From IMG/VR virus record IMGVR_UViG_3300031088_000737, positions 32,001 to 96,000 of that record: a stretch of 64,000 bases of DNA. The stretch is one strand, 5' to 3'. Of this stretch, positions 31,587 through 47,967 are shown in pieces. Source of the stretch: a virus. The notes below the pieces were generated by a model, which made no database searches, was not told the origin of the DNA, and was given only the letters and a program-made list of their open reading frames with translations. The position numbers and the translations under genes were made by a program. Within the stretch, counting starts at the first letter, position 1. The number at the start of each line of letters is the position of its first letter.

Positions 31587-32300
31587 TTACAATCTTGATA
31601 GAAATCTAATTTGATCGGATGTCATTTTTAAACCTTTGGTCGTTGTGAAGGCATATCTTTTGAAATCTTCATATTCTTCGAAGGTTACGTACTTGTCTGC
31701 ACGAATCATTTTAAATCTTTCTATAATCTCTGGAACACCTATTTCGTTCACAAGTGCAAGCTTATCTATCATATCATTAGCTGAAAGACCATTAACTTTA
31801 TTATTAATGCCCTCTCTACTACCTTTTGGATAATACACATTGAGTGTTGCATAATCATTTGTATCAATAGCCATTCTTAAATTTTTACCTACATTAGAAT
31901 TTTTAAAATAGATATTTGCCTCAGCTAGTTTATCGTATTTTTCATTAAATTCTGTTTTTACATATTTTTCTGATGATGTTGAATGTATGTATGTAAAAAA
32001 AGCTACCAAAGGAAGAATAATAAAAAGAATCCCCGCTATTTTTTTTAGAAATGAATTGAACACTTCATTTACAAAAATAGGTGTTGAGTACAGCAATACT
32101 AATATAGCGACAATAATCCATATGATAACTGTTTGGTCATGATACATAGCGATTTGTGATGACATGTTTGTTTCTTGTATGAACGACATCAAATGATACG
32201 GTAAAAAATATAACAATCCATAGCCAATGACTAAACCTAACGCGATTGAACCTACAACTGGCCCACCTAAAATAATTAACTCAAACAACAACTCTAACAT
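31587..32300 (-). CDS. Membrane protein (about three N-terminal TM segments)
   Basis: Hydrophobic N-half, AGGAG SD. Confidence 0.75.
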   Translation of the reverse strand: MLELLFELIILGGPVVGSIALGLVIGYGLLYFLPYHLMSFIQETNMSSQIAMYHDQTVIIWIIVAILVLLYSTPIFVNEVFNSFLKKIAGILFIILPLVAFFTYIHSTSSEKYVKTEFNEKYDKLAEANIYFKNSNVGKNLRMAIDTNDYATLNVYYPKGSREGINNKVNGLSANDMIDKLALVNEIGVPEIIERFKMIRADKYVTFEEYEDFKRYAFTTTKGLKMTSDQIRFLSRL

Positions 32301-35178: not shown

Positions 35179-38100
35179 ATGTCATTAAATTATACAAATC
35201 AATATATTCAATCAATTTTATCATACATAGATTATATCACGTTTGATGGAACAGATGGTAAAGAAATATTGTTAAATAAAAATTATACGAACTTAACAGA
35301 TAAAACTTCCTTTTTAAATAGGGCTAAAGAATATATAGACAATCCAATAACTTATGCAGAAATGGAATCTAGTTTAGAGTTTTTTACATCACATTTTAAG
35401 ATCATTAATCAGGAAACAGCAGACAATTCTAATGGATTTACGGGAACAACTTACCAGTTGATAAGTCCAATTGAGGGATCTACTTATAATGTTGGAGAAA
35501 TTTTTGTATCTTACACTGGGACAGAGGCAGAGTCTGGTGATTATTTTACGGATTTAAAATTAACTTTTTCTGATTCTATTACTTTTACTAGATCATCACA
35601 AGAACCATTAGCTTTAGATTATTTAAAGAGAACATTAAACAACTCAAATGGAAATGTTGTAAATATTTCAGGACATTCGTTAGGTGGTTATTTAGCAGCA
35701 AGAAGTTATTATTATCTTACAACAGAAGAAATAAAAAAAATAGGTGAGGTGACAACTTTTAATGGAGCTGGTTTTTCTGTTTTAGACGGAGGTTTAGACC
35801 CAGTAAAAAGAGCTTTATATGAAGAAAAAATAAACAATATTTTTTCTTACAGGGGGCTGAATGTTACTACAAGCAATATTGGTGAAATTGATATTTCTAA
35901 TGCTTTGAAAGGTTCTTGGACACTTATTTCAACTTTTCAACATTTAGGTCCAAGAATAGGTGTATTTACTGAAAATCCGGGTGGATGGAAAGGAAATCAT
36001 AGCATGTCTATGTTAGTCAACACTATGGGATTTTATTCTATTTTAAGTAAAATAATTACTGATGTTTTCTATGTTGAAGATGATAACGGTGTCGAATATT
36101 TGGGTGATGATGCTGTTGTTTATTGGGTTAATAAGCTGTTGAGTGGTTCGTTTTATGACACTATTGATTTTGGACAAGCTTATAATACATTAGCTTCCAA
36201 AATAATGGAAATGTTTAATATACCAGAAAATGAGAGTTCAAAAGCAGGTTACCCATCAGCTCAATTTCTTTCTTTATTTGATTATTTTACAGAAAATAAT
36301 AATTTAAAAATTAAAATATTTGAAAATGTTCATTCAGAATCACCTGTTATAACTAATTTTGATAACAATAGTAATCGTGCTTATATGTATGCATTATTAA
36401 ATGACTTACCATTTACTGTTATTGTTCCTGAATCTTATAATACAGGGATATACCAAAAAACAAACCAAGATGGTTTTCAATATACATCAAATATAAAATA
36501 TAATGTAGAATATTATAGTGAGGATTATATAAGTCTAAGATCTATTTACAATAAACTATATACAAAGATACTATCTGACAAATTATCAAGTTCTTTAACT
36601 TATAATTTCACTGATGCTACTATTGTTATAGATGGTTTTGATAAATTTGCATTTATTGATGAAATCAATGTATCTGGAAGCCCAAATAATTACAACGTAA
36701 TTTATGTAAATACAACAAAAGATGAATACATTCCTGATAACGTTCCATTGATCTATTTTAAAGCTGACACTGGTCGTTATCTTGATGTAAAACTCGGTAA
36801 TGCTATTATATATGACACACCGGGTAACGACTCTATTAGGATATATTCAGATAATAATATAATCAACTCCACTTATGGCACAGATATTATTGAAATAGTA
36901 AGTGGAACTGTTGGCAATGTGATTATGCTGAAAGATTTAATAGCCACTGATAAAGAGCAATCCTTGATTGTTAGAAATAACAGTCAATTAGAGCACAGTC
37001 TTACTATCAGTGCTGATAATGTTAACATGGGAGATCTGATTGGAAGAATTAGTGATAACAAGGATTTCACATTAGATTTCGGTAATAAGGTTATAATTCT
37101 TTCAGGTAATACTGATTTAAATGTGGGTGGTTCTCAACATTCTTCGGCAGATATCAATGCTTTATTAAAAAACTTCCCTGAATTGTATTCAGTAGCGGCA
37201 GGACATAATTTTGTTTTTAATGAAAAATTTATTGATGATTACATAAAGATCACAGCCAAAAACTTTTCTGGTCAACTTGGATATGAAAACACACAAACAG
37301 TATCGTCAGAACATGCTGCTTATGTAATTGACAAGTTAACACAATATAGCCAAGACATGAATGATTCTTCATCATTATTCATACAAGAAGAAAAAAATAA
37401 ATTGAATAATAAAGTTACAAGTATCTCTTCATCATTAAATGTGAATGGATTACAAGAAGATATCTTAAATATGGTCATCCCATTAATAAAAAACAAAGTT
37501 GAAGCACAGTCAGTTGCTTTTATTCTTCAAAACAAGTTAGATGATTTTAAATATTTAGATCTTAGTCATCAAGTTAATATGGCAACAGAAGATGGCATGG
37601 CTAATAATAGAGCTGATAACATATATGGAAAAAAAGAAACGAAAAATTATATAGCACACTATACTTCTGAAGGTGATAAATATTGGGTATGGGATGGTAA
37701 ATATTATTATAATAGAGCTATTGATGGGGTTCAAGTATCTGCTTTTTATGATAGTGTTGAACGTGGTGAAGTAATGAATTATTATGTAGAGAATATTGTT
37801 TTGAAAAGCAGTTCAACATTTAGCAGTAATGTTCTTTCTGGATCTAATGGGTCGGATCTTTTAATTGGTGAACATGTTTATGGTCAAACAAACGATTTTG
37901 GAGTCGCAGGTGGAAAGACAGTCACAGAAGCAAACACCGTACAAAATGGAAATGATATTTTAATCGGTAAAGTAGCATCAGCATATTCAGGTAATAATTT
38001 TATATATGGTTCAGAAGGTGCCTATGGAGGATCAGGTAATGATTTGATTATTGGTGGTGGGACGATTATGGCAAATCAAAATTATAAAAATGATACAGAA

Positions 38101-41100
38101 AGCACTAATAATGAAAATGAGATAATAATATTATCATTATCAGATGTATATAGTTCTAATGGTAAAAATAATATTATAGATTTAGGCGAGGCAGGCAGCA
38201 ATATATTTGGAACTAGAAATGATACTTTTATTGGTGGTAGTGGACATTCTACATTTATTGGTGGTTATAATGCTTATTTTGCTTTAAGATATGGTGACAT
38301 CTCTTTTGGTTTGGATGGTGAGAATTTCTTAGAAACATTTAGAATGAAATTTAATATTCTTGATGATTTTTATAATTTACATAAAGTTAATCAATCTTTA
38401 GGTAAAAATATTATTTTAGCTGGCTCAGGTGGTGTGTCTGCTTCTCTTGGATATGGTGATTATATAGAGAATATGAAAGGTGGCGGTGGACAAATTATCG
38501 GATTAGGTGGTAATGATATATTTATTAAAGATCATACAGGTATAATATCAGGTGGTTCATCTAATATTAATATAACAGGAAATAATAATACAGTATATTT
38601 TGGAGTCAAAGATCAATATAGTTTATCTAATGCAAATAATAATATTTTGTATAGTAGAGGTTATCGAGATAATATTAATTTGGGTAATGATTACTATCAA
38701 ATTACTGGTATAGATAATACTCTATTATTAGGTAAATCTTCTTATAATATAAAATTAGATGGCGAAAGCACCCAAGTTAAATTTAAAGAAAATAACAATA
38801 ATAACAACATTGTTATAAATGAATCTAAAACTACATCTATTGATGTTGGCTTTCAAAATATCCTGACTATTGAAAGCCAAAATGAAATTTCTTTAAGATA
38901 TGGAAATCTTACTGAGCTTTTAATAAATACCAGATCACCATTAAGCCTTAATAGTATTATATCTGATCGCATTGTGTTACAAAATTATAATGGTATGAAT
39001 AACAGTGATATTTTTGCTTTATATAGTGTTACTGTTGACAACTTAACTGCTAGTAGTGGTATTATAACAGGCAGTGTAACTGATGTGTCAACAGCTAGTT
39101 TTGAAGGGACATTAGGCGGATTTTCTTTAAATGGTTCTGCTCTAGGAGCAAATGTTGAATTGAAAGGTTTTATTGAAGGTGTGAATACTTTATTTAATAA
39201 CGTCAAATCATTTAATTTTCAGCAAACAATTAGAACATACGAGCAAGCTATTATTGAAATTAAAGATTCCAATATTGATAATTATACATCATCAGGGAGC
39301 ACTAGATTTAGTGGACAAAATACAAATATTGATTCATTAACAGTTAGTGGCCTTAAAAACTCAATTTCTGTTGATGGATCTGTCAATTCAGCTATATTAT
39401 CATCAACAAGTGAACTATTTTTTAATGCAAAATCAATTAAGTCATTACAGGCAAGTTCTAATGGAGTAGTTGTCAAAGGTAATAATGTATTAGGTGCAAT
39501 ATCAGTAGGTATGGGCATTTATGGAAATTCTTTAATGGTCGATAATGCTAGTTTTATTGAAGTTTCAAATAGTGGCTATGGTTCAATGTTTTTATCAGTT
39601 ACAAATAGTGATGTCGTTAATATCATTAGTGGCTATTATAACGGAGCTGTTTTTACAAGTGTTAATACTGTAAATATAAATTTAGATAATGTTAATCCAT
39701 TAAGTTCTTTTAATGGCGATAATATACATTTAACATCTACAAAACCATTATCAATTAGATATTCTAACAATAAGTATTATCTTAATAATGTATCATTCAC
39801 TTTTATTCCTGATTCTGTTACTGTATCTGGTCGTCAATATAATTCAGAACAGTTAGCAGTATTATTTGAAGTCTTAAAGAAATCTAACTTAGTTCAAGCT
39901 ACTGCACTAATAGATTCAACTGGGATTGGTTATGACTCGATAGGTGATACTAATAATCAAGGTGTTCATGTTGATAGTGGTATTTACATAGGTACTGATA
40001 GTGATGATATTGTTTATGCTACTGATAATAAGGCTTATCGAATTAAAGCAGGTAAAGGTGATGATTATATTGATTTTGGAACAAAGCCAAGAGATTCTTA
40101 TACTCACATTATAGAGTACAATCGTGGTGATGGTTTAGATACTATTAACAGTAACAGTGAAAATATAGAAATACGATTGGGCAACATCGCATCAAATGAA
40201 TTGTCATTTAAAATGATTGATGATGTAGTTACCAATAATAAAGTCCTTAAAGTTTTTTTAGGAACTGAACAAATATTTACTATCAATGGCTTTCTAATTT
40301 CTAACATAATATTTAAGGCAAGTGATAAAAATATACTAAAAGCTGATATTATTAGTTTAACATCTACTATTTATGGTACTGATAATGGTGAAGTTATTGA
40401 AGGACTAACAACAGATACTTATATTGTTGCTGGAAAGGGTAATGATACTATTAATTTTATAGGAAATAATAAAAATGTTCTCTATTACAGTCGTGGAGAT
40501 GGTGTTGACATTGTTAATTCAGTTAGTAATTTTGAAATAAGATTTTCTGCTGATATTTTAAAGTCCAGCGTTCGATATAGTAAAGTAAGCGAAAATGTAT
40601 ATGACATCTATTTAGATGCAATTAAAATATTAACACTAACGAATACAAATCAATCTAAGTTTATTTTCTCAAATGGTGATGTGGTTGATGGATATTATAT
40701 TAATTCGTATCTGTCTGAACAGTTAGGTGGTAAACCTTTTTATGAAAATGGAATATATACAGGAAGCGACCTTCCCGATTATTATGATTTGTCAGAAGGT
40801 GGTGAATATCATTTAAAAGGTAATAAAGGTAATGATACTTTTAATTTTGGTGGAAATAATGAGCATAGTATCTTAGACTATACCGAAGGTGATGGTGTTG
40901 ATACTTTGGAAGGATATTCTAAAAATGTCGATATTAATTTGATTAACATGTCATCTGAATTTTTAACTTCTATTTATGAAAATGGTTACTTACACTTATA
41001 TTATAAAGGAGTTAAAATCATGAGAATTGATGATGTTGATAAATCAAATATTAATATTCACATGAGTGATAAGTCTTTTACTCAAACAGAAATTTTCATA

Positions 41101-42108
41101 TGGGCTTATGGTGAATCAGAAACTACCCCCACAGATCCAGCAAATACTGATGGCGATGATATTATTACGAATGACCCAACAATAGATAACAATATATATG
41201 CTGGTAAAGGTAATGACATTATTAATTTAACAAGTAATCCAGCTTATCCAAATGTTGTAAATAATATCTATTATTTTGATGGCGATGGACATGAAACAAT
41301 TAATAATGATTCAAATAGCAAATATAAAATTTTGTTAGCTAATACTATTGCAGAAGAAGATGTTTCTTACAACACTGGATTTGTAAATGGTTCTGTAATG
41401 CTTTATATTTCTTATAAAAACGATGTTATTTTCACGATCCCATCTTTCAATTTTAATGATTTCACAATTGATTATTTATCATCAGGAAATTCTATTGATA
41501 TGGATTCATTATCAGAAAATTTGATGATGAATTATGGAACAGATGGTGACGACATTTTAACATCAAATCAAGGAGTTGCTGTATTTTTTGCAGATGATGG
41601 TAACGATATTATTAATGTATCTTCTAACATTATGGCTGCTGATATTTATGCAGGCGGTGGTGATGATACGATAAATATTAATAATTATGGATTTAACAAT
41701 ATTAATTATAATGATGGAGATGGATACGATACTATTATCTTAAATAATCATGATAACACTATGATTTTAAATTTATATGACTATGATGAAGCTTCTATTA
41801 GATTCGAATATGATTTAACAAATCCAAATAATTTAAATATTTATAGTGATGAAACGAAAATTATTACAATTGAAAATTATGTGATTGATGATGTATCATT
41901 CGAGTCTATATCTATTGAGTTAAATGATAACACACTTGAAGGAGCTGATATTAATGCCAAAGCTGTTTCAGGTAGTGAGTCTTCTAAATTATTAGCGGAT
42001 TCCAACATTAATGGTCTTATTAGTTTCATGGCTTCTACACCAGATGATTCAGATACAGCAACCAGTGATACTCAATCGGCATCTAGTTATATAAAAAAGA
42101 ATGAGTAA
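35179..42108 (+). CDS. 2309-aa RTX-repeat protein with N-terminal alpha/beta-hydrolase (lipase) domain
   Basis: ISGHSLGGYLA nucleophile elbow; many GxGxD-type repeats (AGKGDDYI, AGKGNDTI, AGGGDDTI, GDGxDT); C-terminal LISFMAS resembling type I secretion tails. Confidence 0.85.
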   Translation: MSLNYTNQYIQSILSYIDYITFDGTDGKEILLNKNYTNLTDKTSFLNRAKEYIDNPITYAEMESSLEFFTSHFKIINQETADNSNGFTGTTYQLISPIEGSTYNVGEIFVSYTGTEAESGDYFTDLKLTFSDSITFTRSSQEPLALDYLKRTLNNSNGNVVNISGHSLGGYLAARSYYYLTTEEIKKIGEVTTFNGAGFSVLDGGLDPVKRALYEEKINNIFSYRGLNVTTSNIGEIDISNALKGSWTLISTFQHLGPRIGVFTENPGGWKGNHSMSMLVNTMGFYSILSKIITDVFYVEDDNGVEYLGDDAVVYWVNKLLSGSFYDTIDFGQAYNTLASKIMEMFNIPENESSKAGYPSAQFLSLFDYFTENNNLKIKIFENVHSESPVITNFDNNSNRAYMYALLNDLPFTVIVPESYNTGIYQKTNQDGFQYTSNIKYNVEYYSEDYISLRSIYNKLYTKILSDKLSSSLTYNFTDATIVIDGFDKFAFIDEINVSGSPNNYNVIYVNTTKDEYIPDNVPLIYFKADTGRYLDVKLGNAIIYDTPGNDSIRIYSDNNIINSTYGTDIIEIVSGTVGNVIMLKDLIATDKEQSLIVRNNSQLEHSLTISADNVNMGDLIGRISDNKDFTLDFGNKVIILSGNTDLNVGGSQHSSADINALLKNFPELYSVAAGHNFVFNEKFIDDYIKITAKNFSGQLGYENTQTVSSEHAAYVIDKLTQYSQDMNDSSSLFIQEEKNKLNNKVTSISSSLNVNGLQEDILNMVIPLIKNKVEAQSVAFILQNKLDDFKYLDLSHQVNMATEDGMANNRADNIYGKKETKNYIAHYTSEGDKYWVWDGKYYYNRAIDGVQVSAFYDSVERGEVMNYYVENIVLKSSSTFSSNVLSGSNGSDLLIGEHVYGQTNDFGVAGGKTVTEANTVQNGNDILIGKVASAYSGNNFIYGSEGAYGGSGNDLIIGGGTIMANQNYKNDTESTNNENEIIILSLSDVYSSNGKNNIIDLGEAGSNIFGTRNDTFIGGSGHSTFIGGYNAYFALRYGDISFGLDGENFLETFRMKFNILDDFYNLHKVNQSLGKNIILAGSGGVSASLGYGDYIENMKGGGGQIIGLGGNDIFIKDHTGIISGGSSNINITGNNNTVYFGVKDQYSLSNANNNILYSRGYRDNINLGNDYYQITGIDNTLLLGKSSYNIKLDGESTQVKFKENNNNNNIVINESKTTSIDVGFQNILTIESQNEISLRYGNLTELLINTRSPLSLNSIISDRIVLQNYNGMNNSDIFALYSVTVDNLTASSGIITGSVTDVSTASFEGTLGGFSLNGSALGANVELKGFIEGVNTLFNNVKSFNFQQTIRTYEQAIIEIKDSNIDNYTSSGSTRFSGQNTNIDSLTVSGLKNSISVDGSVNSAILSSTSELFFNAKSIKSLQASSNGVVVKGNNVLGAISVGMGIYGNSLMVDNASFIEVSNSGYGSMFLSVTNSDVVNIISGYYNGAVFTSVNTVNINLDNVNPLSSFNGDNIHLTSTKPLSIRYSNNKYYLNNVSFTFIPDSVTVSGRQYNSEQLAVLFEVLKKSNLVQATALIDSTGIGYDSIGDTNNQGVHVDSGIYIGTDSDDIVYATDNKAYRIKAGKGDDYIDFGTKPRDSYTHIIEYNRGDGLDTINSNSENIEIRLGNIASNELSFKMIDDVVTNNKVLKVFLGTEQIFTINGFLISNIIFKASDKNILKADIISLTSTIYGTDNGEVIEGLTTDTYIVAGKGNDTINFIGNNKNVLYYSRGDGVDIVNSVSNFEIRFSADILKSSVRYSKVSENVYDIYLDAIKILTLTNTNQSKFIFSNGDVVDGYYINSYLSEQLGGKPFYENGIYTGSDLPDYYDLSEGGEYHLKGNKGNDTFNFGGNNEHSILDYTEGDGVDTLEGYSKNVDINLINMSSEFLTSIYENGYLHLYYKGVKIMRIDDVDKSNINIHMSDKSFTQTEIFIWAYGESETTPTDPANTDGDDIITNDPTIDNNIYAGKGNDIINLTSNPAYPNVVNNIYYFDGDGHETINNDSNSKYKILLANTIAEEDVSYNTGFVNGSVMLYISYKNDVIFTIPSFNFNDFTIDYLSSGNSIDMDSLSENLMMNYGTDGDDILTSNQGVAVFFADDGNDIINVSSNIMAADIYAGGGDDTININNYGFNNINYNDGDGYDTIILNNHDNTMILNLYDYDEASIRFEYDLTNPNNLNIYSDETKIITIENYVIDDVSFESISIELNDNTLEGADINAKAVSGSESSKLLADSNINGLISFMASTPDDSDTATSDTQSASSYIKKNE

Positions 42109-45557: not shown

Positions 45558-45613
45558 TTCAGTTTGTAATTTTAAAGATAAAAAAACCGTAAGTGAATAC
45601 GGTTTATTTTATT

Positions 45614-45697
45614 TGGTGCGGAAAGTGGGACTCGAACCCACACGCCTCTCGGCACTGGCTTCTAAGACCAGCGTGTCTACCATTCCACCATTTCCGC
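45614..45697 (-). tRNA. tRNA-Leu(UAG)
   Basis: GCGGAAA/TTTCCGC-A-CCA; loop CT TAG AA; long variable arm. Confidence 0.95.
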
Positions 45698-45704
45698 ATA
45701 GACA

Positions 45705-46049
45705 TTAATATTTCTTTTCAATATAATTTAAATCAACATTTTCAAAGATAAAATCTATATTATTATTTTTGCAACAGGTTATCAAATCTTGATAGTCTTC
45801 AAAATCATTGGCATCATAATCAGGAATACTATCTTCATGTTCATATAAATCAATTAAACTGTAACTCAACTCAGTTTCATCAACACCAGCAATATCGGAC
45901 CATTCTTTTCGAATAGAACGTTTAAAGACATAATCAGTAAAATCTTCTTTATGTGGCTCTGCAACCAGTTCGCCATCAAGGAAGATATTCCAATAACGAT
46001 TGTCATACAAATTAACGATAACAATTTTACCTTTCACTGAGTTTGTCAT
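45705..46049 (-). CDS. Small acidic hypothetical protein inside the tRNA operon
   Basis: Start moved to MTNSVKG; the track extension runs into a tRNA gene. Confidence 0.65.
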   Translation of the reverse strand: MTNSVKGKIVIVNLYDNRYWNIFLDGELVAEPHKEDFTDYVFKRSIRKEWSDIAGVDETELSYSLIDLYEHEDSIPDYDANDFEDYQDLITCCKNNNIDFIFENVDLNYIEKKY

Positions 46050-46084
46050 GTTTAAATACCTTTGTAAGAAATAAAACATAAAGT

Positions 46085-46168
46085 TGGTGCCCGAAGACGG
46101 ACTCGAACCGTCACTCCCGAAGGAAGGGGATTTTAAGTCCCCCGCGTCTACCATTTCGCCATTCGGGC
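46085..46168 (-). tRNA. tRNA-Leu(UAA)
   Basis: GCCCGAA/TTCGGGC-A-CCA; GGGGA CT TAA AA TCCCC. Confidence 0.95.
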
Positions 46169-46178
46169 ATAAAAAAGT

Positions 46179-46274
46179 AATTCAATATTTTAGAATGCAT
46201 TTCAGCAAACGTGTCTACCACTCCACCACCCCGTGCAAACACGAGAAAAGGATTCGAACCTTCGATATTGAATT
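46179..46274 (-). ncRNA. Circularly permuted tRNA-like RNA (T arm, loop-closed acceptor stem, D arm)
   Basis: AATTCAATAT/ATATTGAATT outer stem; GAAGG TTCGAAT CCTTT; TCTCGTG-TTTG-CACGGGG; TG GTG GAGTGGTAGA CAC. Confidence 0.75.
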
Positions 46275-46279
46275 AAATC

Positions 46280-46364
46280 TGGTCCCCGGAGCCGGACTCG
46301 AACCGGCACGCCTTTCGGCGGGAGATTTTAAGTCTCCTGTGTCTACCAATTCCACCATCCGGGG
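46280..46364 (-). tRNA. tRNA-Leu(UAA)
   Basis: CCCCGGA/TCCGGGG-A-CCA; GGAGA CT TAA AA TCTCC. Confidence 0.95.
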
Positions 46365-46382
46365 ATAAACACATGTACAATC

Positions 46383-46468
46383 TGGTACCCGAAGTCGGAC
46401 TCGAACCGACACGCTTTTCAGCGGGAGATTTTGAATCTCCTGTGTACTACCAATTTCACCATTCGGGC
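46383..46468 (-). tRNA. tRNA-Leu(CAA)
   Basis: GCCCGAA/TTCGGGT-A-CCA; GGAGA TT CAA AA TCTCC. Confidence 0.93.
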
Positions 46469-46479
46469 ATATCTAAATC

Positions 46480-46564
46480 TGGTACGGAAGATGGGACTCG
46501 AACCCACACGCCTCGCGGCACTGGTTTCTGAAACCAGCATGTGCTACCATTTCATCACTTCCGC
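46480..46564 (-). tRNA. tRNA-Leu(CAG)
   Basis: GCGGAAG/CTTCCGT-A-CCA; CTGGT TT CAG AA ACCAG. Confidence 0.93.
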
Positions 46565-46578
46565 ATTAACTCATAATT

Positions 46579-46664
46579 TGGTACCCGAAGTCGGACTCGA
46601 ACCGACACGCCTTTCAGCGGGAGATTTTAAGTCTCCTGTGTACTACCAATTTCACCATTCTGGC
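46579..46664 (-). tRNA. tRNA-Leu(UAA) with one acceptor-stem mismatch
   Basis: GCCAGAA/TTCGGGT-A-CCA (A4:G69 mismatch); GGAGA CT TAA AA TCTCC. Confidence 0.88.
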
Positions 46665-46675
46665 ATATCTAAATT

Positions 46676-46759
46676 TGGTGCGTTAGGTGAGACTCGAACT
46701 CACAATCCTTTCGGCACTGGCTTCTTAGACCAGCGTGTATACCATTCCACCACTAACGC
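46676..46759 (-). tRNA. tRNA-Leu(AAG)
   Basis: GCGTTAG/CTAACGC-A-CCA; CTGGT CT AAG AA GCCAG. Confidence 0.93.
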
Positions 46760-46768
46760 ATGATTTGT

Positions 46769-46915
46769 CGCTTAAAGTAGGAGTCGAACCTACAAGTCAT
46801 GGACTCAATGTCCATCGCGTCTACCGTTCCGCCATATTAGTAAGATACTAATAACAGGATTCGAACCTGTAATGACAGGGCTATCACCCTATGTCTACCA
46901 TTCCATCATTTAAGC
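46769..46915 (-). ncRNA. Fused double-cloverleaf tRNA-like RNA with swapped acceptor strands
   Basis: Outer GCTTAAA/TTTAAGC; internal TATTAGT-ATCTT-ACTAATA; two D arms, two T arms, two non-canonical anticodon arms. Confidence 0.75.
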
Positions 46916-46919
46916 AATC

Positions 46920-47003
46920 TGGTGCGGAAGGTGGGACTCGAACCCACACGTCTCTCGACACTGGCTTCTAAGGCCAGCACGTCTACCATTTCATCACTTC
47001 CGC
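46920..47003 (-). tRNA. tRNA-Leu(UAG)
   Basis: GCGGAAG/CTTCCGC-A-CCA; CTGGC CT TAG AA GCCAG. Confidence 0.95.
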
Positions 47004-47025
47004 GTGATATTTCTTTACATCAATT

Positions 47026-47109
47026 TGGTGCCCCGAGGGAGACTCGAACTCCCACTCCTTTCGGAAACGGATTTTGAATCCGCCGCGTCTACCATTCCGC
47101 CATCGGGGC
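47026..47109 (-). tRNA. tRNA-Leu(CAA)
   Basis: GCCCCGA/TCGGGGC-A-CCA; GCGGA TT CAA AA TCCGT. Confidence 0.95.
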
Positions 47110-47141
47110 TTATGTTGTAGCTACATATCTTACTATAAATC

Positions 47142-47225
47142 TGGTGCGATTGGAGAGACTTGAACTCTCAATCCTTGCGGCATTGGCTTCTTAGACCAAC
47201 GTGTATACCATTCCACCACAATCGC
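47142..47225 (-). tRNA. tRNA-Leu(AAG)
   Basis: GCGATTG/CAATCGC-A-CCA; TTGGT CT AAG AA GCCAA. Confidence 0.93.
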
Positions 47226-47232
47226 ATATCTT

Positions 47233-47316
47233 AATGAGTAAAGGGACTCGAACCCTTACGCCTTTATGGGGCATGTCTAAGCGAAGACATTATGGCTACC
47301 ATTACATCATACTCAT
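47233..47316 (-). ncRNA. Leu-type tRNA body with 8-nt anticodon loop and no encoded CCA
   Basis: ATGAGTA/TACTCAT; ATGTC TTCGCTTA GACAT; variable arm GCC..GGC; AAGGG TTCGAGT CCCTT. Confidence 0.7.
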
Positions 47317-47318
47317 CA

Positions 47319-47399
47319 GGGGTTTGACTTTGATAATAGTGAGTTACAAGCTAATAATTACTATGTTTCAAAGTTTCCAGTGGGAACCGGAGCAACCCA
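47319..47399 (-). ncRNA. Candidate structured RNA in the array spacer
   Basis: GGGTT/AACCC closing stem; TCCGG TTCCCA CTGGA hairpin (G-U favours minus strand); ACTTTGA/TCAAAGT and ATAGT/ACTAT stems. Confidence 0.4.
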
Positions 47400-47415
47400 A
47401 TTTTAAATCTTTATT

Positions 47416-47500
47416 TGGTGCGGAAGGTGAGACTTGAACTCACAATCATTATAGAAACTGTGTTTGAGACAGTCGCGTTTACCAGTTTCGCCACATCCGC
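47416..47500 (-). tRNA. tRNA-Leu(CAA)
   Basis: GCGGATG/CTTCCGC-A-CCA (one U-U pair); ACTGT CT CAA AC ACAGT. Confidence 0.9.
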
Positions 47501-47552
47501 ATATTTATTTCTTTAAGAGTGTTTGTTTGTTTCCTCACTCTTCATGTTTACT

Positions 47553-47581
47553 ATCTTACCAACTCTTTTCTTCTTTGTCAA
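47553..47581 (-). promoter_or_regulatory. Proximal sigma70 promoter (P2) of the tRNA array
   Basis: TTGACA-17-TAAGAT with AT-rich upstream region. Confidence 0.75.
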
Positions 47582-47671
47582 CAACTATTTTAAATTATTT
47601 TAAAATATTTTCCTTTTAAATCAATGATTTACGTTGTTTATAGTTGTAGTTAACCCTAGACATTCGCCCAT

Positions 47672-47693
47672 AAAAAAAGACCCTTTTGGGGTC
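47672..47693 (-). terminator. Attenuator terminator
   Basis: GACCC-CAAAA-GGGTC-TTTTTTT; its 5' GAC overlaps the antiterminator strand GCATCTGGAC. Confidence 0.8.
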
Positions 47694-47776
47694 CAGATGC
47701 GAAATGAGGCGAGTTTTTATATTCGAGGTCATCTGCATCTGGACAATCTAATTGTCCAAAATGCAGACAAATAGAT
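47691..47776 (-). promoter_or_regulatory. Mutually exclusive attenuator hairpins (protector, anti-antiterminator, antiterminator)
   Basis: ATCTATTTGTC/GACAATTAGAT; TCTGCATTTTGGACAAT/ATTGTCCAGATGCAGA; GTCCAGATGC/GCATCTGGAC. Confidence 0.75.
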
Positions 47777-47777
47777 G

Positions 47778-47840
47778 CTAGCCCAAGCTAAGTAATAGTG
47801 AGCTTAAGAGTAGCAGTGATAATCGAATAGTTGTGAACAT
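47778..47840 (-). CDS. Leucine leader peptide MFTTIRLSLLLLSSLLLSLG
   Basis: GAGGA SD; 9 Leu codons (TTA x3, CTA x2, CTG, CTC, CTT, TTG); missed by the ORF track. Confidence 0.8.
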   Translation of the reverse strand: MFTTIRLSLLLLSSLLLSLG

Positions 47841-47864
47841 AATTTCGTCCTCGTTAATTCTTAT

Positions 47865-47893
47865 ATTTTATCAAAGGTTCGTTTCAAAGTCAA
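47865..47893 (-). promoter_or_regulatory. sigma70 promoter (P1) of the Leu leader
   Basis: TTGACT-17-TAAAAT with extended -10 TG; back-to-back with a divergent TTGACT..TAAGAT promoter. Confidence 0.8.
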
Positions 47894-47967
47894 ATGATTT
47901 CGTGCTCATTGACTTTGATTTCAATCACTATAAGATAATAGAAATGTTAATATAATGGAGATGGTGC

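Follow-up and report, generated by a model that had tools for sequence, protein, structure and literature searches.

Why would an element classed as viral keep eleven tRNA genes for a single amino acid side by side? The question arises from a 64,000-nt stretch of DNA (the window; positions 32,001 to 96,000 of IMG/VR record IMGVR_UViG_3300031088_000737), where a sequence-only reading had noticed eleven tRNA genes at 45614-47500, every one a leucine isoacceptor. Positions without a prefix refer to the window, and those marked genome to the whole 181,270-bp record. ARAGORN and the Rfam tRNA model (RF00005) return 11 tRNA-Leu genes in this interval, all on the minus strand, with the anticodons as first described (UAG x2, UAA x3, CAA x3, CAG x1 and AAG x2; ARAGORN). 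From the anatomy that we observe around these genes and the regulation that we infer from it, the array is probably a demand-sensing, feedback-controlled and self-sufficient module for leucine decoding.

The 11 canonical genes jointly read all six leucine codons. Their Rfam RF00005 scores, 48.2-62.9 bits, lie above the gathering score of 29, and the long variable arm, A73 and encoded CCA of the original description are present in 11/11 cloverleaves, together with a 3-bp D stem and a terminal ACCA. Copies sharing an anticodon do differ in the flanks of the anticodon loop, as had been claimed (CAA loops read CTCAAAC or TTCAAAA), and the tRNA bodies are 49-95% identical. ARAGORN makes 13 tRNA calls over the whole window, each of them on the minus strand within 45614-47500, a density of about 7 genes per kb (13 calls in 1.9 kb). 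If leucine accounts for 10-15% of tRNA genes, the binomial probability that 11 of 13 calls share one isotype is roughly 6e-10 to 5e-8. The statement that no other specificity occurs is accurate for the canonical genes and too strong for the span as a whole, which includes a Gln(UUG)-like gene (46767-46842).

The array is not an assembly artefact. The interval 45560-47900 recurs exactly in an independent ENA contig of 1.28 Mb, and the same 13 tRNA calls appear, at 99.4% identity, in an NCBI contig from a lineage that is 98% identical. Samples in which the element was encountered include ERR11479726, SRR8867410 and ERZ27247443. Many short-read assemblies stop at the array, and contig ends adjoin the flanking gene.

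Judged by its sequence signals, the array is one predicted operon, with a first promoter (P1), a leader open reading frame (ORF), an attenuator, a second promoter (P2), the tRNA genes and a terminator:

47865..47893, minus strand: promoter P1, TTGACT-17-TAAAAT with an extended TG (consensus scan, 10/12 matches)
47778..47840, minus strand: leader ORF of 20 codons plus stop, MFTTIRLSLLLLSSLLLSLG (read from the sequence)
47732..47767, minus strand: hairpin B, the anti-antiterminator (minimum-energy fold), beginning 10 nt past the leader stop
47691..47744, minus strand: antiterminator, in which the 3' arm of hairpin B (47729-47744) pairs with 47691-47704
47672..47694, minus strand: attenuator, an intrinsic terminator, GGACCC...GGGTC then T7 (terminator scan), invariant in 6 lineages
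47553..47581, minus strand: promoter P2, TTGACA-17-TAAGAT (consensus scan), with an AT-rich UP-like stretch upstream
45584..45605, minus strand: intrinsic terminator of the operon, an 8-bp stem then a T run (terminator scan)

Nine of the 20 leader codons specify leucine, and all six kinds are sampled (UUA x3, CUA x2, CUG, CUC, CUU and UUG). A Shine-Dalgarno motif, GAGGA, lies ~8 nt upstream. Among 6 lineages the 63 nt of this ORF are identical except at the non-leucine codon 13 (AGC or TGC), the P1 hexamers are invariant, and only a handful of columns vary between the leader ATG and the end of the terminator T run. The 196-nt leader region folds better than shuffled sequence (z = -5.35). The segment that completes the antiterminator (47691-47704) overlaps the 5' arm of the terminator, and the two helices are mutually exclusive. 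Constrained folds in silico with a ribosome masked at A-site codons 6-18, a range that takes in eight of the nine leader leucine codons, give the antiterminator and no terminator. The terminator forms without a ribosome, or with one at codons 19-21. In these models the region has the logic of a classical leader-peptide attenuator, placed before tRNA genes.

Attenuation of this kind requires coupling to a ribosome, which is plausible here because the expression signals of the replicon are bacterial. A Shine-Dalgarno motif is found at -18 to -5 in 106/166 ORFs, compared with 5-8 in control windows, while TTGAC is most frequent at -60 to -50 and TATAAT at -50 to -30. In view of these strong Shine-Dalgarno and sigma-70 signals we rejected a eukaryotic giant virus as the replicon.

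The contig has 25 tRNA calls in total, for five anticodon families only, and these lie in two arrays. The second array and a third, in a distant relative (L049), have leaders of their own:

genome 156104-158247: second array, with Ala x6, Arg x3, CAU x2 and one anticodon-less call (ARAGORN)
genome 155730-156104 (L006:3730-4104): leader region of the second array, with its own P1, leader MNIQLTIRARAIS, terminator and P2 module
L049:1550-1960: leader of the L049 array, 32 codons including ATA x3, AGA x4 and TTA x5, followed by a terminator and an AT-rich promoter

Anticodons in the second array are Ala-UGC, Ala-GGC, Arg-UCU, Arg-CCU and CAU (the CAU tRNA is plausibly an AUA reader), and the central codons of MNIQLTIRARAIS are ATA AGA GCC AGA GCG ATA. 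The P2 module (~100 nt) of the leucine array recurs there in near-identical form, with its copy at genome 156007. The L049 array consists of repeated Arg-UCU, CAU and Leu-UAA genes. Thus, three arrays have three compositions, and each leader is written in the codons that its own tRNAs read. Because three independent arrays each match their own leader codons, we take the leaders to be codon sensors, for which this match in sequence is the strongest argument. It had been anticipated that the replicon might group all its tRNAs by amino acid, the leucine genes then being simply a sorted set. The second array is indeed grouped, but the grouping tracks a codon-matched leader before each array, which is more than sorting.

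We infer the following mechanism. P2 resembles stable-RNA promoters in being UP-rich and would give basal, constitutive expression. When charged tRNA-Leu is short, the ribosome would pause on any leucine codon of the leader and the antiterminator would form. This stalling would drive read-through of P1 transcripts into the array, and so would yield more tRNA-Leu. Each array would be a regulon tied to one codon sensor, whose tRNAs must match the leader codons; the array would be all-leucine because its sensor is all-leucine. The benefit would be that the leucine-rich, AT-biased genes of the element are translated independently of the host tRNA-Leu pool, and depletion of that pool would be covered whatever its cause (codon mismatch, host shut-off or tRNA damage).

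A match of the array to AT-rich leucine codon usage had been suggested from the start, and it is borne out in part. No amino acid is used more by the element than leucine (9.0% of codons), whose codon shares are TTA 40%, TTG 22%, CTT 18%, CTA 8%, CTC 6% and CTG 5%. The gene shares follow roughly, with UAA and CAA together at 6/11 for 63% TTR codons, AAG at 2/11 for 24% CTY, and UAG and CAG together at 3/11 for 13% CTR. Copy number, on the other hand, is only loosely tuned. Leu-UAA, Arg-UCU and CAU genes are amplified in distant relatives (L049, L051 and L055, which share the small ORF115 embedded in the leucine array, described below) and in a huge-phage record (G002). These three are the classic rare-codon set for AT-rich genes.

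Several points weigh against a demand-sensing module. Read-through would equally follow from a lack of leucine itself, and the extra tRNA would then be useless. In the part of the array that is conserved among relatives, each anticodon occurs exactly twice, even though TTR codons are about 5x as frequent as CTR codons. The leader helices lie in a near-invariant region that leaves nothing to covary in 6 lineages, and their support is thermodynamic only. Finally, P2 sits 3' of the attenuator, which bears on the share of transcription that the leader could control.

Attenuators of enterobacterial operons such as leuL-leuABCD and pheM-pheST resemble the leader region in having a promoter, a short ORF rich in regulatory codons, and exclusive antiterminator and terminator helices, the latter a hairpin followed by a U run. 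Those operons encode biosynthetic enzymes or a synthetase, whereas here the regulated genes are tRNA genes. Their leaders repeat one codon, the present one samples six synonymous leucine codons, and a second promoter lies downstream of the attenuator only here. In a full-text literature search, we found no description of a leader-attenuated tRNA operon. The leuQPV operon of E. coli, like the array, contains leucine tRNAs only, but it consists of three tandem near-identical tRNA-Leu(CAG) genes with one anticodon and G37, compared with 11 genes, five anticodons, bodies that are 49-95% identical, interspersed tRNA-like RNAs, an ORF and an attenuator in the element.

Dense tRNA array units reportedly span many isotypes, in contrast to the 11-13 genes, single isotype and codon-matched leader found here. 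Such units, by the definition of Tran et al. 2016 (PMC4758250), hold at least 20 tRNA genes. The array exceeds their density of at least 2 tRNA genes per kb (13 calls in 1.9 kb) and falls short of their size (11 canonical genes, 13 calls); it shares with them and with the Mycobacterium arrays (PMC5966550) a very dense clustering, often on mobile DNA. Huge phages carry up to 67 tRNAs (PMC7162821). Clusters in these phages and in T4 and T5 likewise belong to large AT-rich elements that supply their own tRNAs, but they mix amino acids, and no convincing codon-matched leaders were seen in three huge-phage records. Hence the parts are all known, namely tRNA-Leu genes, same-isotype operons, dense mobile arrays (PMC4758250) and leader-peptide attenuators. 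What appears to be new is their combination, that is a single-amino-acid array for every codon, a six-codon leader, and interleaved conserved tRNA-like RNAs.

We see an even chance that this amounts to an undescribed regulatory class, in which ribosome-mediated, codon-sensing attenuators feed back on tRNA arrays and act as homeostats of tRNA supply, the make-up of every array fitting the codons of its leader peptide. It would belong to a clade of megabase-scale, apparently non-cellular bacterial elements whose arrays also keep anticodon-less and permuted tRNA-like RNAs. The tRNA genes of mobile elements have so far been explained by codon compensation or by escape from nucleases, both of which treat them as passive cargo. 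Here, the sensor appears to dictate the composition of the array. If true, a mobile element gauges decoding speed per codon family and adjusts its own tRNA supply, leader-peptide attenuation extends from amino-acid supply to tRNA supply, and single-amino-acid tRNA arrays have a simple explanation.

The explanation that survives best beside a demand-sensing module is counter-defence, which we regard as unlikely although far from negligible. The divergent copies would survive or replace tRNA-Leu destroyed by a tRNA nuclease or toxin from the host or a competitor, and the leader would act as an alarm. That phage tRNAs can defeat tRNA nucleases is established (PMC10264068, PMC11464382 and PMC11555353); the cases include T5 tRNA-Lys against PARIS, tRNA-Tyr against retron and PtuAB systems, and anticodon-loop variants. 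Those phages, like the present element, are mobile elements with extra tRNA copies beside tRNA repair genes, and RtcB, a Pnkp-like fusion and PTH2 (tRNA repair or rescue) are encoded on the contig. A sensor of codon stalling would react quickly to tRNA cleavage. Since the sensor of a supply module would respond to cleavage in the same way, the two explanations are compatible. An arms race would be expected to show as fast or diversifying evolution of the copies between related elements, which is our own expectation and not a published criterion. Homologues of a flanking 237-aa protein led to syntenic loci in four further lineages, and all four carry the array. The canonical genes, with their positional orthologues, are as follows:

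47416..47500, minus strand: tRNA-Leu(CAA) copy 1 (ARAGORN; Rfam 57.6 bits), 94% identical to orthologues
47318..47415, minus strand: conserved spacer of 98 nt, 94-95% identical across lineages
47142..47225, minus strand: tRNA-Leu(AAG) copy 1 (ARAGORN, Rfam), 100% identical to orthologues
47026..47109, minus strand: tRNA-Leu(CAA) copy 2 (ARAGORN, Rfam), 99-100% identical to orthologues
46920..47003, minus strand: tRNA-Leu(UAG) copy 1 (ARAGORN, Rfam), 93-94% identical to orthologues
46676..46759, minus strand: tRNA-Leu(AAG) copy 2 (ARAGORN, Rfam), 100% identical to orthologues
46383..46664, minus strand: lineage-specific three-gene insertion, not present in L031, L033 or L037
46579-46664, minus strand: tRNA-Leu(UAA), in the insertion
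46480-46564, minus strand: tRNA-Leu(CAG), in the insertion
46383-46468, minus strand: tRNA-Leu(CAA), in the insertion
46280..46364, minus strand: tRNA-Leu(UAA) copy 1 (ARAGORN, Rfam), 82.6% identical to an E. coli tRNA-Leu
46085..46168, minus strand: tRNA-Leu(UAA) copy 2 (ARAGORN, Rfam)
45614..45697, minus strand: tRNA-Leu(UAG) copy 2 (ARAGORN, Rfam), 100% identical to orthologues

The conserved core runs CAA, an odd type-II tRNA-like RNA, AAG, CAA, UAG, a variable slot, AAG, UAA, a permuted-like element, UAA, ORF115 and UAG. It therefore has eight tRNA genes, with four anticodons each in two divergent copies, and the bodies of such a pair are 67-89% identical, a duplication that would suit counter-defence. 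Positional orthologues, however, are 93-100% identical, while paralogues are 49-95% identical (49-89% within the core). Array spacers are 94-100% identical across lineages, compared with 81% for the embedded ORF115, and the third codon positions of the neighbouring genes for Fpg, an AI-2E transporter and a nucleoside deoxyribosyltransferase (NDT) are 57-72% identical. The differences in UAG copy 1 are compensatory, with an anticodon-stem pair and a variable-arm pair changed on both sides. Because the orthologues are so much closer than the flanking third positions, the comparison points to divergent copies that are old, functional and individually maintained by purifying selection, which speaks against their being pseudogenes or the product of a rapid arms race over tRNA sequence. 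The copies, anticodon loops included, are nearly frozen, and no diversifying selection is evident. The sequence-diversified library for evading a leucine-specific toxin that had been proposed thus finds no support. Recent transfer of the array between lineages is an unlikely cause of the conservation, as ORF115, which is embedded between tRNAs 12 and 13, is down to 81% identity while the tRNAs on either side of it are at 95-100%.

Our literature search, which was not exhaustive, gave no bacterial defence nuclease specific for tRNA-Leu. Bacterial Schlafen nucleases were considered as a threat to leucine or other type-II tRNAs and set aside because their reported targets are others: cleavage by RorSlfn5 is enriched for Lys, Ala and Met tRNAs, and a second bacterial Schlafen paper reports that the T-loops of 28 tRNAs are targeted. 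It also counts against a role in defence that the same architecture occurs in the mixed Ala/Arg/Ile and Arg/Ile/Leu arrays, which resemble rare-codon sets.

The anticodon loops offer one further point in favour of counter-defence. All five CUN-reading tRNA-Leu genes (45614-47225) have A37 instead of the G37 of E. coli leuQPV (an m1G37 site), G37 being typical and not strictly defining; the loops are otherwise canonical and normal, which tells against it. G37 is also found in the type-II Leu(GAG) and Leu(UAG) genes of one huge-phage relative. Each CUN loop is one base from a UUR loop (UUR CTTAAAA, CUN CTTAGAA; UUR TTCAAAA, CUN TTCAGAA). The UAA-CAG-CAA insertion (46383-46664) is shared by the window and its 98% relative. 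Its genes closely copy UAA copy 1 (46280-46364; 86-88% identical) and the UAG copy-1 type (87-92%), and show single anticodon changes. A37 in the CUN readers and these recent anticodon-switched copies suggest that the leucine set arose from genes of UUR type that were duplicated and changed their anticodons. LeuRS ignores the anticodon, so such switching costs nothing for leucine. An A34 anticodon, as in the two AAG genes, is unusual for bacterial tRNA-Leu. From its likeness to an E. coli tRNA-Leu, UAA copy 1 may be of gammaproteobacterial type.

It is improbable, though worth weighing, that the array is instead a housekeeping tRNA-Leu operon, clustered like leuQPV, of an unusual bacterial chromosome of ~1.9 Mb. 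Tandem tRNA-Leu operons do occur in cells. Metagenome contigs of 1.28-1.92 Mb encode proteins identical or related to that of the array-flanking gene (identical ones up to 1.86 Mb, related ones at 1.84 and 1.92 Mb). The source record (31% GC, CheckV estimate 58%) is labelled a provirus in IMG/VR, meaning that its 181 kb were excised from a larger contig. The promoters, Shine-Dalgarno sites and terminators are of bacterial type, and single genes of housekeeping type are present (a class-I aminoacyl-tRNA synthetase (aaRS), Clp ATPase, Fpg and AsnB). No relative was found, however, among 185,579 GTDB species genomes in two protein-pattern scans, one of which used a protein 93-96% conserved within the clade. 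The 181 kb have no rRNA or any Rfam RNA family other than tRNA, and the 25 tRNA calls cover five anticodon families only. The genes are mostly orphans, and most of the proteins tested lack a Pfam or PHROG family. Eleven leucine genes are also, from general knowledge, far above what is usual for a 1.9-Mb cell. We favour a giant non-cellular element over an unusual cell as the replicon.

Scattered among the orphans are genes for RtcB, the Pnkp-like fusion, Clp ATPase, AsnB, Fpg, a Ser/Thr kinase, a class-I aaRS and PTH2. No LeuRS-specific domain was found on the contig, which is a fragment. The Pnkp-like fusion and RtcB are tRNA repair enzymes on the contig that carries the arrays:

genome 95908-98259 (L003:908-3259): Pnkp-like kinase / metallophosphatase / Rnl1-type RNA ligase fusion, 783 aa
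genome 8791-10227 (L001): RtcB ligase

Besides the canonical genes, the leucine array includes four conserved non-canonical tRNA-like RNAs and the embedded ORF:

47232..47317, minus strand: type-II tRNA-like RNA (ARAGORN '???') with a perfect 7-bp acceptor stem, U73 and no CCA
46846..46915, minus strand: degenerate tRNA-like RNA (Rfam 28.4 bits) with a 6-nt anticodon loop, 100% identical to L037
46767..46842, minus strand: Gln(UUG)-like tRNA-like RNA (ARAGORN; Rfam 38.3 bits)
46169..46279, minus strand: permuted-looking tRNA-like element, 97% identical in 4 lineages
45705..46049, minus strand: ORF115, 114 codons plus stop, inside the array

Some of these RNAs, chiefly the anticodon-less or permuted ones, could in principle be aminoacyl donors, decoys or processing or regulatory RNAs, for which their conservation, the ARAGORN call with a 2-letter 'anticodon' in the second array and the established ability of LeuRS and AlaRS to do without an anticodon might be cited, but such a non-translational use is very improbable as an account of the array, given that the 11 canonical genes have normal anticodon loops, that the leader would sense decoding, and that U73 and the missing CCA of the odd type-II RNA speak against charging by LeuRS.

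The type-II RNA, which has an 8-nt anticodon loop, is present in all four lineages (L031, L033, L036 and L037) at 91-94% identity. Its stems are all invariant and the loop varies most (ttcgctta, taagctta, taagcgta), so that in sequence it looks like a selected, non-decoding tRNA look-alike. The Gln(UUG)-like RNA has A33, three acceptor mismatches and no CCA, and is 95% identical to its L037 counterpart, with one compensatory T-stem change. Together with the degenerate RNA at 46846-46915 it fills the variable slot (46767-46915, minus strand), which holds two degenerate tRNA-likes in the window and in L037 and none in L031. At the orthologous place, L033 has a CUA-anticodon, amber-reading tRNA-like gene (L033:4560-4723), of which the RNA at 46846-46915 is the positional orthologue by alignment. 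The element at 46169-46279 is closed by a 10-bp stem (46265-46274 with 46179-46188) and contains a T arm, a leucine-type D arm and an acceptor stem with a capping loop. Its fold includes the closing stem (z = -2.0), variation is confined to the 4-nt capping loop (tttg, ttta, ttca), and the sequence reads like a circularly permuted tRNA. The eleven natural, divergent tRNA-Leu bodies and the anticodon-less look-alikes are material for work on recognition by LeuRS, on tRNA processing and on immunity that targets tRNAs.

ORF115, which is predicted to be co-transcribed with the array, encodes a small acidic protein of 114-115 aa. It follows directly on a tRNA-Leu gene (UAA in the window, CAA in L051 and L053). 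Its homologues are limited to the clade and occur within Leu-rich tRNA arrays wherever the locus is long enough:

L049:3501-3845: ORF115 homologue
L051:3501-3845: ORF115 homologue
L055:1351-1698: ORF115 homologue

A confident AlphaFold2 model of the protein (pLDDT 86) had no fold match in the PDB (Foldseek gave nothing below E = 0.18). ORF115 has no Pfam or PHROG family and no tblastn match in phages.

IMG/VR scans with single flanking proteins and with alignments returned no relatives. Three huge-phage records (G001-G003), reached via PTH2, have 19-66 tRNAs and share 9/202 ORFs with the contig in ~217 kb of their sequence; as distant relatives, they served for general comparison only. The array-flanking genes were not found in them, nor were convincing codon-matched leaders. 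Matches to 'Acinetobacter phage MD-2021a' were rejected as phage relatives, as they are ordinary bacterial sequence with ftsH, folP and glpK nearby. One of the huge-phage records, of 543 kb, has a locus (L015; G003:153953-162014) with five class-I tRNAs of 77-78 nt bearing the leucine anticodons UAG, UAA, CAA, CAG and AAG. They lie among Pro, Gln and His tRNAs, lack a long variable arm, and are possibly anticodon-switched tRNAs. Elsewhere in the window, a 2309-aa protein (35179-42108, plus strand) has an N-terminal Mbeg1-like (lipase-type) domain and is kept in relatives (2325 aa in L037).

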